Below are positions 19,154 to 23,390 of a stretch of 64,000 bases of DNA, in pieces. The DNA is taken from positions 6,516 to 70,515 of the forward strand of contig JAYYZJ010000012.1 of NCBI GenBank assembly GCA_036340075.1, written 5' to 3'. The translations under genes and the position numbers were made by a program. Every line of letters begins with the position of its first letter. Position 1 is the first letter of the stretch. The notes beneath the pieces are model-generated. The model made no database searches, was not told the DNA's origin, and saw only the letters and a program-made list of their open reading frames with translations. The DNA comes from Thermodesulfobacteriota bacterium (GTDB lineage: Bacteria > Desulfobacterota_D > UBA1144).

Positions 19154-19804
19154 ATGAGAATAGGTATTATAGGTGGGAATTTTAATCCAATACATATTGG
19201 TCATGTGTCAATGATTGAAGAGGTTTATGAAAGTTTTAATCTTGATAAACTCTTAATAGTTCCAAATTCGAATCCTCACTATAAGGAAACAAGAAAAATA
19301 AAATTTGAGTTAACCGTAGATATGATTAATTTGGCTATAAATAAAAAAATCGACTATGAAATCAGTACACTGGAAAGTGATGTTAATGAGAAGCATTTCA
19401 CCCTAAACACATTAAAAAATATTTCTGAAATGTACAAAAATGACAAGCTTATTTTTATAATTGGTAGTGATCAATTTTTGAAATTTGAAACATGGTACAA
19501 ACCAGAAGAGATAAGAAAATTAATCAACATTGTTGTCCCTATTAGGACACCATACTTTGTTGATGTTGAAGAATTGATCAAGAAGAACCCAGGTTCTTTT
19601 ATAAGAAAAAATTATGGCAGGAAGGTCTTGTTAAAAACAAGCACAGAAAAGATGATGATATTCTTTGATTTGGTTAACAAAATCGATATATCTTCTTATG
19701 CGATAAAGAAGATGTTTGTTGAAGACAATGCTCGAGAAGCGAAGAAATTTTTACCAAGTACTGTTTTTGAATATATTGTAAAAAACAAAATATATAATTT
19801 ATGA
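19154..19804 (+). CDS. nadD: Nicotinate-nucleotide adenylyltransferase
   Basis: GGNFNPIHIGH, IIGSD, ISS motifs; followed by rsfS. Confidence 0.92.
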   Translation: MRIGIIGGNFNPIHIGHVSMIEEVYESFNLDKLLIVPNSNPHYKETRKIKFELTVDMINLAINKKIDYEISTLESDVNEKHFTLNTLKNISEMYKNDKLIFIIGSDQFLKFETWYKPEEIRKLINIVVPIRTPYFVDVEELIKKNPGSFIRKNYGRKVLLKTSTEKMMIFFDLVNKIDISSYAIKKMFVEDNAREAKKFLPSTVFEYIVKNKIYNL

Positions 19805-20139
19805 AATCATTTGATAACGTTAAAATTATTTATAATGAGCTAATTGAAAGAAAAGCCGAAAATGTAGTTGTTTTGGATATCAATAAAGTCTCGTCAATTG
19901 CTGACTACTTTATCATTGCTAGTGCTGATTCAGAAAGGGGTGTTAAATCCTTAGTGGATTTTGTTTCAAAGAAGATTAAAGAAAGATTTGGGAATATAGG
20001 AAAAATAGAGGGGGTAAGTGGAGGAAGATGGATTGTAATTGATTTCGGTGATGTAATTGTTCATGTATTCCACAAAGACACAAGAGAGTACTTTAATTTA
20101 GAATCCCTTTGGGATGACGCAAAAGTTGTTGGGCTTTAA
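19801..20139 (+). CDS. rsfS: Ribosome silencing factor (iojap)
   Basis: KAENVVVLD, DYFIIAS, WIVIDFGDVIVHVF, REYFNLESLW. Confidence 0.95.
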   Translation: MKSFDNVKIIYNELIERKAENVVVLDINKVSSIADYFIIASADSERGVKSLVDFVSKKIKERFGNIGKIEGVSGGRWIVIDFGDVIVHVFHKDTREYFNLESLWDDAKVVGL

Positions 20140-20145
20140 CATAAA

Positions 20146-21354
20146 TTACTTTTTTGGTTTTCTTATAAAAGCAGGTATTTCAAAATGTTCATCATCACCC
20201 AATGGGTGGAGCTCCTCAGGTTCTGAGTCACCATTGCCATTAGATGAAATTTGACTTAATGATGAATCATCATCAATGGCTTCATCAAGGTTAAAACTAA
20301 TCTGATTTTTATCCTCTTCAACTTCTTCTGTGACTTCCGCAGACCTAGGCTTTGGTCTTGATGCACCATCAATGCCCGTTGCAATTACTGTAATTTTAAC
20401 TTTATCACCCATAGTTTCATCAACTACTAAGCCAAAAATTAATTCAACATCAGCACTTGCTCTACTTCTTATATGGTTGCAAGCTTCATTCAATTCATCG
20501 ATTGTGAAATTACTTGATGCTGTAACGTTAATTAGAATTCCAGTAGAGCCATCAATTGAAACGTCTTCTAATAGAGGGCTCGTTATAGCATTTTCAGCAG
20601 CTTCTGTTGCTCTCGAAGTTCCTTCGCCATCACCTGTTCCCATCAAGGCCTTGCCACCGCTTTCTTTCATAATTTTTTTGACGTCAGCAAAGTCAACATT
20701 TATAAATCCAGACCCAACAATTATATCCGCAATTCCTCTAACCGCTCCTGCAAGCACGTTGTCTGCTGCTTTAAAAGAATCGAGAATCCCAGCAATTTGT
20801 TGAATTTCTCCCAACTTGTCATTAGGGATAACAATCATAGAATCAACTTCGGTAGATAAATCTTCAATCCCTACCTCTGCATTTGTTAATCTTTTCTGCG
20901 CTTCAAATTCAAAAGGCTTTGTTACAATAGCAATTGTCAAAGCACCTGAATCTTTAGCAAGTTTTGCTACAACTGGTGCAGCTCCGGTTCCTGTACCACC
21001 ACCCATACCTGCGGTAATAAAAACCATGTCTGCTCCTTGAAGCGCTTCTGTTATGTCGTTTTGATCCGCTTTAGCACATTCGCTTCCTAATCCAGGGTCT
21101 CCTCCAACCCCTAATCCTTTAGCGATATTTTTTCCTATTTGAATTATTCTTTTAGCTTTTGATTTTTGTAAATCTTGAAAATCGGAATTAATTGCTATAA
21201 ACTCAACACCGGTTATATGCATATCTATCATGCTATTTACGGCATTCCCACCGGCTCCACCAATTCCTATAACCTTAATTTTCGCCCCAAGCTTTTCAAA
21301 AGGATTCTCCTCTTGTGACCCTGAGACAGAACTAGAAAATTCGAAAGTAGGCAT
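20146..21354 (-). CDS. ftsZ: Cell division protein FtsZ
   Basis: GGGTGTG tubulin signature, INVDFAD, C-terminal EIPAFIRK; GAGGT SD. Confidence 0.99.
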   Translation of the reverse strand: MPTFEFSSSVSGSQEENPFEKLGAKIKVIGIGGAGGNAVNSMIDMHITGVEFIAINSDFQDLQKSKAKRIIQIGKNIAKGLGVGGDPGLGSECAKADQNDITEALQGADMVFITAGMGGGTGTGAAPVVAKLAKDSGALTIAIVTKPFEFEAQKRLTNAEVGIEDLSTEVDSMIVIPNDKLGEIQQIAGILDSFKAADNVLAGAVRGIADIIVGSGFINVDFADVKKIMKESGGKALMGTGDGEGTSRATEAAENAITSPLLEDVSIDGSTGILINVTASSNFTIDELNEACNHIRSRASADVELIFGLVVDETMGDKVKITVIATGIDGASRPKPRSAEVTEEVEEDKNQISFNLDEAIDDDSSLSQISSNGNGDSEPEELHPLGDDEHFEIPAFIRKPKK

Positions 21355-21370
21355 CTCTACACCTCTAAAA

Positions 21371-21417
21371 TAACTATATATAGTAGTCTCAATAAAAAAA
21401 GATACTATATTTAGTAT
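21371..21417. promoter_or_regulatory. Tandem NrdR-box-like operators upstream of ftsZ
   Basis: TAACTATATATAGTAG (21371-21386) and ATACTATATTTAGTAT (21402-21417) match acaCwAtATaTwGtgt; 31-bp period; minus-strand TATAAT at 21424-21419. Confidence 0.65.
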
Positions 21418-21459
21418 TATTATATATCATAAATTAATAAAAAGATATAAAAAAAAGAC

Positions 21460-22692
21460 TTAAAAAAGGTCTGAGAACCAGGTTCTCATAGAGTCCATAA
21501 CTCGCTTAAATACTTGAGCTTCTCTTATTCTTATTTTCTGAGCCCCACCAACATCATTGTGGGATCCCCATAAAAGCAAGCCAACCCCAGTTGCACATTC
21601 GGGACCAGAGACAAGTTCTTCTAGGCCAGTAATAGACGTAGGACGTCCCAATCTTACTGGCATATTCAAGATTTTTTGAGCTAAATGCTCAGCTCCATTG
21701 ATTGCCATTGACCCCCCAGTTACTACGCATCCTGCAGGTAGCATATCATAGTATCCAGATCTCATTATCTCTCTTCTTGCCATTGAAAAAATTTCTTCTA
21801 GTCTAGGTTCAATTATATTAGCTAGCTCCAATTTGCTTATTTTTTTTCTTCCTGGACCAGCTATCTTATCAATTCTTATATCCTCATCTTCAGATATCAA
21901 ATCAGCTGAAGCAATACCATATCTTTCTTTAATATCTTTTGCATCTGCTTTAGAGGCACCTAGTCCAAATGAAATATCGTTATCTAAGAAATCACCGCCT
22001 ATTGTTATGTTGCTTGTATACTTTATTGAACCATCACAAAATACAGCAATATCTGTAGTCCCTCCTCCACAATCTAGTAATACAACTCCGACATCTCTTT
22101 CGTCGGGAGTTAATACAGCTTCACTCGATGCAATTTGTTCTAATACTAGAGATTGAACATCAAGCCCAGAGTTATGGACGCACTTAACTAAATTTTGTGC
22201 CTGTGTAACCTGTGCAGTTACCATATGAATTTTTGCCTCTAGTTTAACACCATAAAGACCAACAGGATCTTTTATTTTCCTTTCTCCGTCAACAATAAAT
22301 TCTTGAGGCATTACATGTATTACTTCTCTATCAGCAGGTTGAGCCCCTGCCGTTGCGGACTCTATTACTCTATCTAAATCTTTTTTTGTTACTTCTCTGT
22401 TTCTTAAAGTAATCATTCCATGCCCATTTAGACTTCTAATATGACCACCAGCAATACCTACAATTACATTAGTTATTTCTGTTCCAGCCATTTTCTCAGC
22501 ATCAACAATTGCTTGTCTAATGGACTGTACAGTGCTTTCTATATTAAGAACAATTCCTCGTTGGAGGCCTTTAGAAGGATGAGAGCTAACACCAATTACC
22601 TCTACATCTCCTGGACCATTTACTTCAGCTACTAGACAGAGAATCTTGGTCGTTCCTATGTCTAATCCTACTACAACATTAGTTTCCGCCAT
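21460..22692 (-). CDS. ftsA: Cell division protein FtsA
   Basis: GLDIGTTKI, DCGGGTTD, C-terminal amphipathic MRTWFSDLF. Confidence 0.98.
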   Translation of the reverse strand: MAETNVVVGLDIGTTKILCLVAEVNGPGDVEVIGVSSHPSKGLQRGIVLNIESTVQSIRQAIVDAEKMAGTEITNVIVGIAGGHIRSLNGHGMITLRNREVTKKDLDRVIESATAGAQPADREVIHVMPQEFIVDGERKIKDPVGLYGVKLEAKIHMVTAQVTQAQNLVKCVHNSGLDVQSLVLEQIASSEAVLTPDERDVGVVLLDCGGGTTDIAVFCDGSIKYTSNITIGGDFLDNDISFGLGASKADAKDIKERYGIASADLISEDEDIRIDKIAGPGRKKISKLELANIIEPRLEEIFSMARREIMRSGYYDMLPAGCVVTGGSMAINGAEHLAQKILNMPVRLGRPTSITGLEELVSGPECATGVGLLLWGSHNDVGGAQKIRIREAQVFKRVMDSMRTWFSDLF

Positions 22693-22709
22693 TTTTAGCC
22701 ATTATAATC

Positions 22710-23390
22710 TTAAAGATTCGATTTTACAACACCTTTTCGTATATTGCTTATATCTATAAAAGAAGGACTAAGTTTCTTTTTACTATAATCATCTAGAATT
22801 TTTTTAAGGTTTTTAACTTTTGATTTATAATTCCCTTTTCCAAAGTAAATATGAGTATTTTTAGAAGTGAATACACTAAATCCTATTATTTCATCATATT
22901 TTATTTCAGAGATTTCTTCTTTTGAAAAGCTTGTTTCTTTTGTAATTAATTCTAATATTTCACCACCAATCCTTAAATTTTCTTTAGAATCTGAAGTGAA
23001 TATAGGAAAATCTATGCCAACTAAATAACTATCAATTCCAGTAATAAAATTAAATTTAGAATCAATGTATCCCTTTTTGTCAGCAACATATCCCACCATT
23101 AAGATTTTTTTTTCTTTTATGTTTATCCGTAGTTTTCTTAAATTAATTTGTTCGAATTTTATTTCATCGATTATTTTAATTGATTTTAGTTTCACTTCTA
23201 CTTCCTCTTTATTTAATACATAGAAGAGTTTTCCTTGAATTTCGGATGTATGAACAATTTCCTCTGAAGATACATATTGATTTCCCTGGACTTCAATTTT
23301 TTTAACAAAACAAAAAATCGGGAAATATATGTAAGTAGCAACGCTTAATATTGAAATTGCAATAATTAGATTTTTTTTTATTTTATTCAT
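22710..23390 (-). CDS. ftsQ: Cell division protein FtsQ/DivIB
   Basis: Single N-terminal TM, POTRA-like VKKIEVQGNQYVS, position before ftsA. Confidence 0.8.
   Translation of the reverse strand: MNKIKKNLIIAISILSVATYIYFPIFCFVKKIEVQGNQYVSSEEIVHTSEIQGKLFYVLNKEEVEVKLKSIKIIDEIKFEQINLRKLRINIKEKKILMVGYVADKKGYIDSKFNFITGIDSYLVGIDFPIFTSDSKENLRIGGEILELITKETSFSKEEISEIKYDEIIGFSVFTSKNTHIYFGKGNYKSKVKNLKKILDDYSKKKLSPSFIDISNIRKGVVKSNL

Follow-up and report, generated by a model that had tools for sequence, protein, structure and literature searches.

The minus strand of the window, as we call the whole 64,000-nt stretch of DNA analyzed here, carries a complete dcw cluster in the order mraZ-rsmH-ftsL-like-ftsI-murE-murF-mraY-murD-ftsW-murG-murC-murB-ftsQ-ftsA-ftsZ. 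The window comes from contig C12 of a genome of 963 kb (12 contigs, 32% GC, 92.9% complete) from an uncultured host organism, and positions below refer to the window unless a contig or locus is named. The last gene of the cluster, ftsZ (20146-21354; Pfam Tubulin, 8.3e-48, and FtsZ_C, 1.2e-28), is separated from ftsA (21460-22692; Pfam FtsA, 1e-42, and SHS2_FTSA, 4.8e-30) by a spacer of 105 bp (21355-21459), whereas elsewhere in the cluster adjacent genes overlap or stand no more than 17 bp apart, and the 312-bp interval between rsmH and ftsI is occupied by the 108-aa ftsL-like ORF. A first-pass annotation of this DNA had singled out the ftsA-ftsZ gap as the largest spacer of the cluster, and this was borne out. 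At its other end, ftsZ (stop at 20146) converges on an rsfS-like gene on the plus strand (19801-20139), and the 6 bp between the two stop codons (20140-20145) leave no space for a separate terminator.

Read on the sense strand, the spacer comprises a T-rich stretch, a candidate -10 hexamer TATAAT (21419-21424), a single base, a first candidate NrdR box ATACTAAATATAGTAT (the distal box or box 1, 21402-21417), a linker of 15 bp (21387-21401), a second candidate NrdR box CTACTATATATAGTTA (the proximal box or box 2, 21371-21386, in the 5' leader), four T, the Shine-Dalgarno sequence AGAGGTG (21360-21366) and then the ATG of ftsZ, all on the minus strand. The hexamer and the Shine-Dalgarno were read from the sequence, and the GG.G columns of the latter are invariant in the alignment of relatives. 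From the C at position 4 (C4) of box 1 to that of box 2 (21414-21383) the distance is 31 bp, which corresponds to the 15-bp linker. The first-pass annotation had placed both 16-bp palindromes, the 31-bp distance between their cores and a minus-strand TATAAT (21424-21419) correctly; its figure of 5 bp between the proximal box and the Shine-Dalgarno needs correction to 4 nt.

The requirements for an NrdR site have been worked out experimentally. As described in PMC13584703, the site consists of two partially palindromic 16-bp boxes with a linker of 15-16 bp of any sequence, and a single box is not bound, both being required. Mutagenesis and binding assays in the same source found C4 and G13 to be critical and A6 and T11 to be important, while A8 and T9 are replaceable as long as A/T makes up no less than 63% of the stretch from C4 to G13; positions 3, 5, 7, 10 and 14 tolerate change and the flanks are unimportant (PMC13584703). 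Asp15 and Arg17 of the Streptomyces coelicolor NrdR contact C4 and G13, and the Escherichia coli and S. coelicolor proteins bind heterologous sites (PMC13584703). A linker longer by one helical turn is also reported to be allowed. At ftsZ, both boxes carry C4, A6, A8, T9, T11 and G13 (6/6 key positions in each), the inner positions between C4 and G13 are A/T throughout (8/8, i.e. 100%), and the linker is 15 bp, so that on sequence the pair agrees with every published requirement for an NrdR site. What differs is the usual context, upstream of a ribonucleotide reductase (RNR) operon, since the downstream gene here is ftsZ.

The genome encodes a single NrdR (TIGR00244, 186 bits) with a Zn-ribbon and an ATP-cone, on another contig than ftsZ. 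It is similar to solved NrdR structures (E 1e-34 to 1e-30), and the residues aligned to Asp15 and Arg17 of the S. coelicolor protein are likewise Asp and Arg. A search for nrdR had been proposed as a check in the first-pass annotation; the gene is present here and in 19/19 genomes of the order. A reference is available on the contig that carries ftsZ, outside the window, in the class I reductase genes nrdA and nrdB: the nrdA promoter (TTGACT-17-TTTAAT) holds one NrdR box between its hexamers and a second 32 bp further, an architecture found in 16/16 of the family's nrdA loci examined. The proximal ftsZ box and box 1 of nrdA in the same genome are identical at 14/16 bases, with flanks of TA-C...G-TA in the ftsZ boxes versus CA-C...G-TG in the nrdA boxes.

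A symmetrized weight matrix was built from the 16 distinct boxes among the 32 nrdA-promoter sites of the order, with the ftsZ sequences left out. Under this matrix the proximal ftsZ box scores 16.3 bits (rank 4 of 962,781 positions in the genome) and the distal box 7.2 bits (rank 157 of 962,781). When boxes are scored as pairs at 31 or 32 bp, the nrdA promoter comes first with 34.7 bits and ftsZ second with 23.5, the third-best pair reaching 14.9. A matrix made from nrd boxes and a comparison with random background had both been suggested beforehand, and both favor the site: the ftsZ pair is second in the genome only to the nrdA promoter, and its 23.5 bits were reached in 0/100 genomes simulated with a first-order Markov model and in 2/100 simulations of 963 kb of intergenic-type composition, which is about 19 times the roughly 50 kb actually present. 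Of the other top-scoring single sites, the six examined (14.2-17.3 bits) are all within ORFs and lack a second box. The published regular expression for NrdR pairs (methods of PMC13584703) finds 5,331 cores and 145 pairs at spacers of 20-23 in this genome; it was discarded as a criterion, being too loose at 32% GC, and replaced by the six-position rule together with the matrix. The six-position rule itself yields 3 pairs at 31/32 bp against 0.24-0.30 expected, and at least one pair in 17/60 simulated genomes. Because loose box definitions do not discriminate in an AT-rich genome, the case relies on the matrix and, above all, on conservation. Apart from ftsZ, only the nrdAB promoter has an intergenic site of such a kind in this genome, and ftsZ and the ribonucleotide reductase genes would therefore form a regulon of two operons.

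The order consists of one family, represented by 19 species genomes in six genera, all of about 1 Mb. The relatives, recorded under names such as Candidatus Dadabacteria, Thermodesulfobacteriota and TMED58, are marine metagenome-assembled genomes; PMC8115339 deals with genome streamlining in marine Dadabacteria. The ftsA-ftsZ footprint covers the 17 genomes, from six genera, in which ftsZ was found (of the 19), with FtsZ identity down to 73%, and these 17 are kin, so that counts among them are not independent. TATAAT and both boxes occur in 17/17 spacers, the core spacing being 31 bp in 13 of them and 32 bp in the other four (linkers of 15 and 16 bp), and the C4 of box 2 lies at -27 to -31 from the ftsZ start codon in every one (17/17). 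All six key positions (C4, A6, A8, T9, T11 and G13) are invariant in both boxes across the 17 genomes, and variation within the boxes is confined to positions 5, 7 and 12 and the flanks, which are positions that tolerated change in the published assays. Mean pairwise identity over the 17 genomes is 0.96 in the -10 region, 0.90 in box 1, 0.40 in the linker and 0.79 in box 2, against 0.75 at the coding end of ftsA. An alignment of relatives' spacers had been asked for at the outset, and it returned the boxes, the 31/32-bp spacing and the -10, with the linker not kept; to judge from this pattern, selection acts on the boxes but not on the DNA that separates them, as binding studies predict for NrdR.

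Across the 19 genomes, a strict tandem pattern finds 43 sites, namely 19 at nrdA, 17 at ftsZ, five inside ORFs and two at oadG/oadA-like genes, and a reversed control pattern finds none. The pattern is thus present upstream of ftsZ in every genome with ftsZ found (17/17); the two genomes without an ftsZ match, which are 80% and 92% complete, gave no ftsZ-type pair either. The five sites inside ORFs (of 236-501 aa) were taken for chance occurrences and rejected as operators. Outside the order, ftsA and ftsZ are about 25-45 bp apart in 22/22 sampled class relatives, and neither a box nor a six-position core occurs in these spacers, which argues that spacer, -10 and operator arose together; they look like a single innovation at the root of the order.

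Transcription of ftsZ is predicted to start at about 21411-21413, inside the distal box. The conserved TATAAT lies 1 nt before box 1, where a promoter would overlap the operator; no -35 is recognizable upstream of it in the spacer, and a consensus scan of the minus strand detects no promoter of the sigma-70 type, in agreement with the remark of the first-pass annotation that a good -35 is missing. The same kind of scan reports a weak terminator-like hairpin with a T run at the end of ftsA (21472-21488, minus strand; 7 pairs, 3 of them G-C). This inverted repeat recurs in relatives and may be just a by-product of the conserved codons for K-T-W-F in the FtsA tail; were the hairpin functional, it might make ftsZ more reliant on its own promoter, though this is uncertain. 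Parts of the stretch were found in 17 metatranscriptome (RNA-library) runs. Contigs from four RNA runs fall on 20100-22750 as low-depth fragments that leave parts uncovered and in which no start or end can be read, and one 271-nt contig (run X1, 21243-21513, depth 2.3) bridges the entire spacer, which fits either read-through from ftsA or DNA in the library.

The site itself, its match to the NrdR rules, its standing in the genome, its conservation and an intact NrdR were all computed here, and they make it probable that an ftsZ-proximal promoter is repressed by NrdR loaded with dATP and ATP, and that ftsZ is co-expressed with ribonucleotide reductase. The supply of division protein would then probably be turned on and off along with dNTP production. 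NrdR that carries both ATP and dATP assembles into a tetramer able to bind a box pair, and the other oligomers that it forms in the presence of only ATP do not attach to DNA (PMC12051234). Since NrdR binds with dATP and ATP and releases with ATP alone, the predicted logic is that ftsZ is on, together with RNR, at low dATP. From this we infer binding, a promoter and its start site, the sign of the regulation and its physiological timing as follows. The spacer would serve as a control region with an ftsZ-proximal promoter recognizable by its -10 TATAAT alone, and the operator, placed directly after this -10, would extend over the predicted start and through the leader as far as the ribosome-binding site. 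With dATP and ATP held in its ATP-cones, NrdR would sit as a tetramer on both boxes and block initiation, and possibly also polymerases reading through from ftsA; with ATP only, it would not bind DNA and ftsZ would be transcribed. In this scheme ftsZ and nrdAB, as a two-operon regulon, would be on together when dATP is low relative to ATP, a state in which replication would be drawing on the pool, and a build-up of dATP would shut ftsZ off. The first-pass annotation had read the site as an NrdR operator, and every computational check it proposed came out in favor. Its broader idea of dNTP-sensing control of division, a link to nucleotide pools through NrdR, is supported too, though with a sign other than its title might convey: the division protein would be made alongside the enzymes of DNA-precursor synthesis, and the predicted control would be neither a brake applied when dNTPs are short nor a checkpoint that halts division once they are exhausted.

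Several other explanations of the site were weighed. NrdR might bind with no separate ftsZ promoter present, the tetramer then serving only to block or attenuate transcription that arrives from ftsA and the dcw genes before it. The missing -35 and the negative promoter scan of the minus strand agree with this, as do the RNA-library contig that joins ftsA, spacer and ftsZ and the position of the proximal box in the leader, adjoining the ribosome-binding site. We nevertheless regard it as unlikely, since the TATAAT before the distal box is the best-conserved element of the spacer (0.96) and would be superfluous for a pure roadblock, and since class relatives have ftsZ 25-45 bp after ftsA without any such element.

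It is improbable, to a somewhat greater degree, that the palindromes are bound by another regulator of the order that shares the NrdR-box pattern, which would leave ftsZ unconnected with nucleotide pools. In its favor, the flanks of the ftsZ boxes differ from those at nrdA, which lowers the matrix score of the distal box. However, flank positions 3 and 14 proved irrelevant in the experiments described in PMC13584703, the boxes agree with everything that experiments have established for NrdR sites, down to their arrangement as a pair with a linker of 15-16 bp, invariant and variable positions are distributed as in the NrdR logo, and a second regulator with the same specificity is unparsimonious.

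That the palindromes act in RNA, as hairpins of the ftsZ 5' leader that affect translation or stability, seems very unlikely. The boxes are each self-complementary enough to fold, with 91.2% of cells paired under a hairpin model, and at two pairs both sides have changed once; yet this pairing is no better than in shuffles (90.0%, with 71/500 as high), pair 5-12 of box 2 is broken in 7/17 sequences, a start inside box 1, as predicted, would leave that box not fully transcribed, and no Rfam match was obtained at E up to 1. We give similarly little credence to a titrating decoy, in which the sites would bind NrdR so as to tune nrdAB expression with no real effect on ftsZ, because a decoy would not need the register to -10 and ftsZ start codon that is fixed in 17/17 genomes. 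Chance similarity in AT-rich intergenic DNA can be put aside almost entirely: loose patterns are indeed frequent in the genome, but the matrix simulations (0/100, and 2/100 with a 19-fold excess of intergenic-type DNA), the 17/17 conservation beside an unconserved linker and the distribution of the strict pattern over 19 genomes all tell against it.

NrdR repression of an ftsZ-proximal promoter would have close parallels in the NrdR operators of E. coli nrdAB, nrdHIEF and nrdDG, of S. coelicolor nrdAB and nrdRJ, of Listeria monocytogenes nrdAB and nrdDG, and of this genome's own nrdAB. These RNR-promoter operators and the ftsZ site have in common two 16-bp boxes with the six key positions, a 15-16-bp linker of free sequence and a cognate repressor with Zn-ribbon and ATP-cone. 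To judge from its candidate -10 and predicted start, the ftsZ site would also resemble them in lying over or adjoining these elements. Unlike them, the ftsZ site has ftsZ and not an RNR gene downstream, and its box flanks differ. The arrangement also differs from that at the order's nrdA, where box 1 lies between -35 and -10, whereas the ftsZ spacer has its box 1 after the -10 and its box 2 in the leader beside the ribosome-binding site. By its sequence the site is a regular member of the NrdR operator class, and the new part is the target.

In the literature consulted, NrdR is regarded as an RNR-specific repressor, with topA as its one tested target elsewhere. In Pseudomonas aeruginosa, topA has a single NrdR box at which NrdR is an activator, and all other known NrdR targets were RNR genes according to this 2015 Pseudomonas study (PMC4409342). 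The topA gene and ftsZ are both non-RNR genes tied to DNA transactions, control of the latter being predicted; topA has one box and is activated, whereas ftsZ has a tandem operator in a repressing position that is conserved over the order. The known role of NrdR hardly extends beyond RNR genes, and its regulons in 186 proteobacterial genomes average 3.2 genes (PMC5343134). Large bioinformatic surveys of NrdR, as PMC13584703 relates, searched only upstream of RNR operons. A database association of the STRING type between NrdR and FtsZ is mentioned in PMC4898720 and, as far as that mention goes, is another instance of a recurring link between division gene and NrdR; in the genome studied here, nrdR and ftsZ are on different contigs and the boxes precede ftsZ. 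The first-pass annotation knew of no case of ftsZ as an NrdR target, and the literature found likewise names none, supplementary regulon tables and Rodionov and Gelfand 2005 being outside its scope. A search of the literature for NrdR together with Dadabacteria found nothing.

In other bacteria the supply or activity of division proteins is likewise coupled to the replication cycle. DnaA and CtrA control ftsZ transcription in Caulobacter, SOS-induced SulA and nucleoid occlusion link replication status to Z-ring formation, and ftsZ mRNA peaks in S phase in Prochlorococcus. To our knowledge none of these systems uses the dATP/ATP-sensing NrdR, and unlike in them the signal at ftsZ here would be the deoxynucleotide pool itself. 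A canonical, order-wide operator at ftsZ would directly link the deoxynucleotide pool to the division machinery at the level of transcription, and would show a 1-Mb genome reusing one sensor for two cell-cycle steps. A wider reading, which we put forward tentatively and do not consider the likelier outcome, is that NrdR serves in this order as a minimal cell-cycle regulator: through the insertion of a promoter and operator between ftsA and ftsZ, a two-operon regulon (nrdAB and ftsZ) gated by dATP/ATP might keep the Z-ring protein in step with replication without a dedicated cell-cycle transcription factor.

Further observations concern other NrdR-type sites and the reductase genes of the family. 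The two oadG/oadA-like sites found with the strict pattern are intergenic tandem NrdR-type pairs between an aquaporin-like gene and a small oadG-like gene, which is followed by an oadA-like carboxyltransferase gene. They occur in only two genomes, of different genera (locus L076 1533-1574, G009:C4:84632-84673; locus L078 1457-1497, G015:C4:40456-40496), and tblastn found no homologues of the flanking aquaporin-like and oadG-like genes in the genome studied here (G000).

The 5' leader of nrdA, about 130 nt between the second NrdR box and the start codon (contig C12:135405-135536), is strongly conserved in a comparison of this genome (locus L035, about 1369-1500) with 15 other nrdA loci (L036-L050). 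A stem formed by GGGGCAAGG and CCUUGCCUC encloses an invariant CCCCUUUUGCACCCCGUU, and in G000 and G001 the stem is altered on both sides, to GCGAAGAAG and CUUCUUUGC. The Rfam search that gave no match at the ftsZ locus at E up to 1 gave none at the nrdA loci either, and the segment may represent a leader RNA of the reductase operon that has yet to be described.

The genome also has a second gene for an RNR large subunit, outside the window (contig C11:33739-36228, locus L053), an 829-aa frame with ATP-cone, Ribonuc_red_lgN and barrel domains. In the very AT-rich 400 bp upstream of it, no NrdR box pair was found by eye or by the matrix and six-position scans. A family-wide search with NrdA gave a second match of such kind (E 8.6e-40) only in this genome; the sole other extra match is marginal (E 6.5e-4) and falls on the NrdR gene of G006. 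The second large-subunit gene may have been acquired recently.
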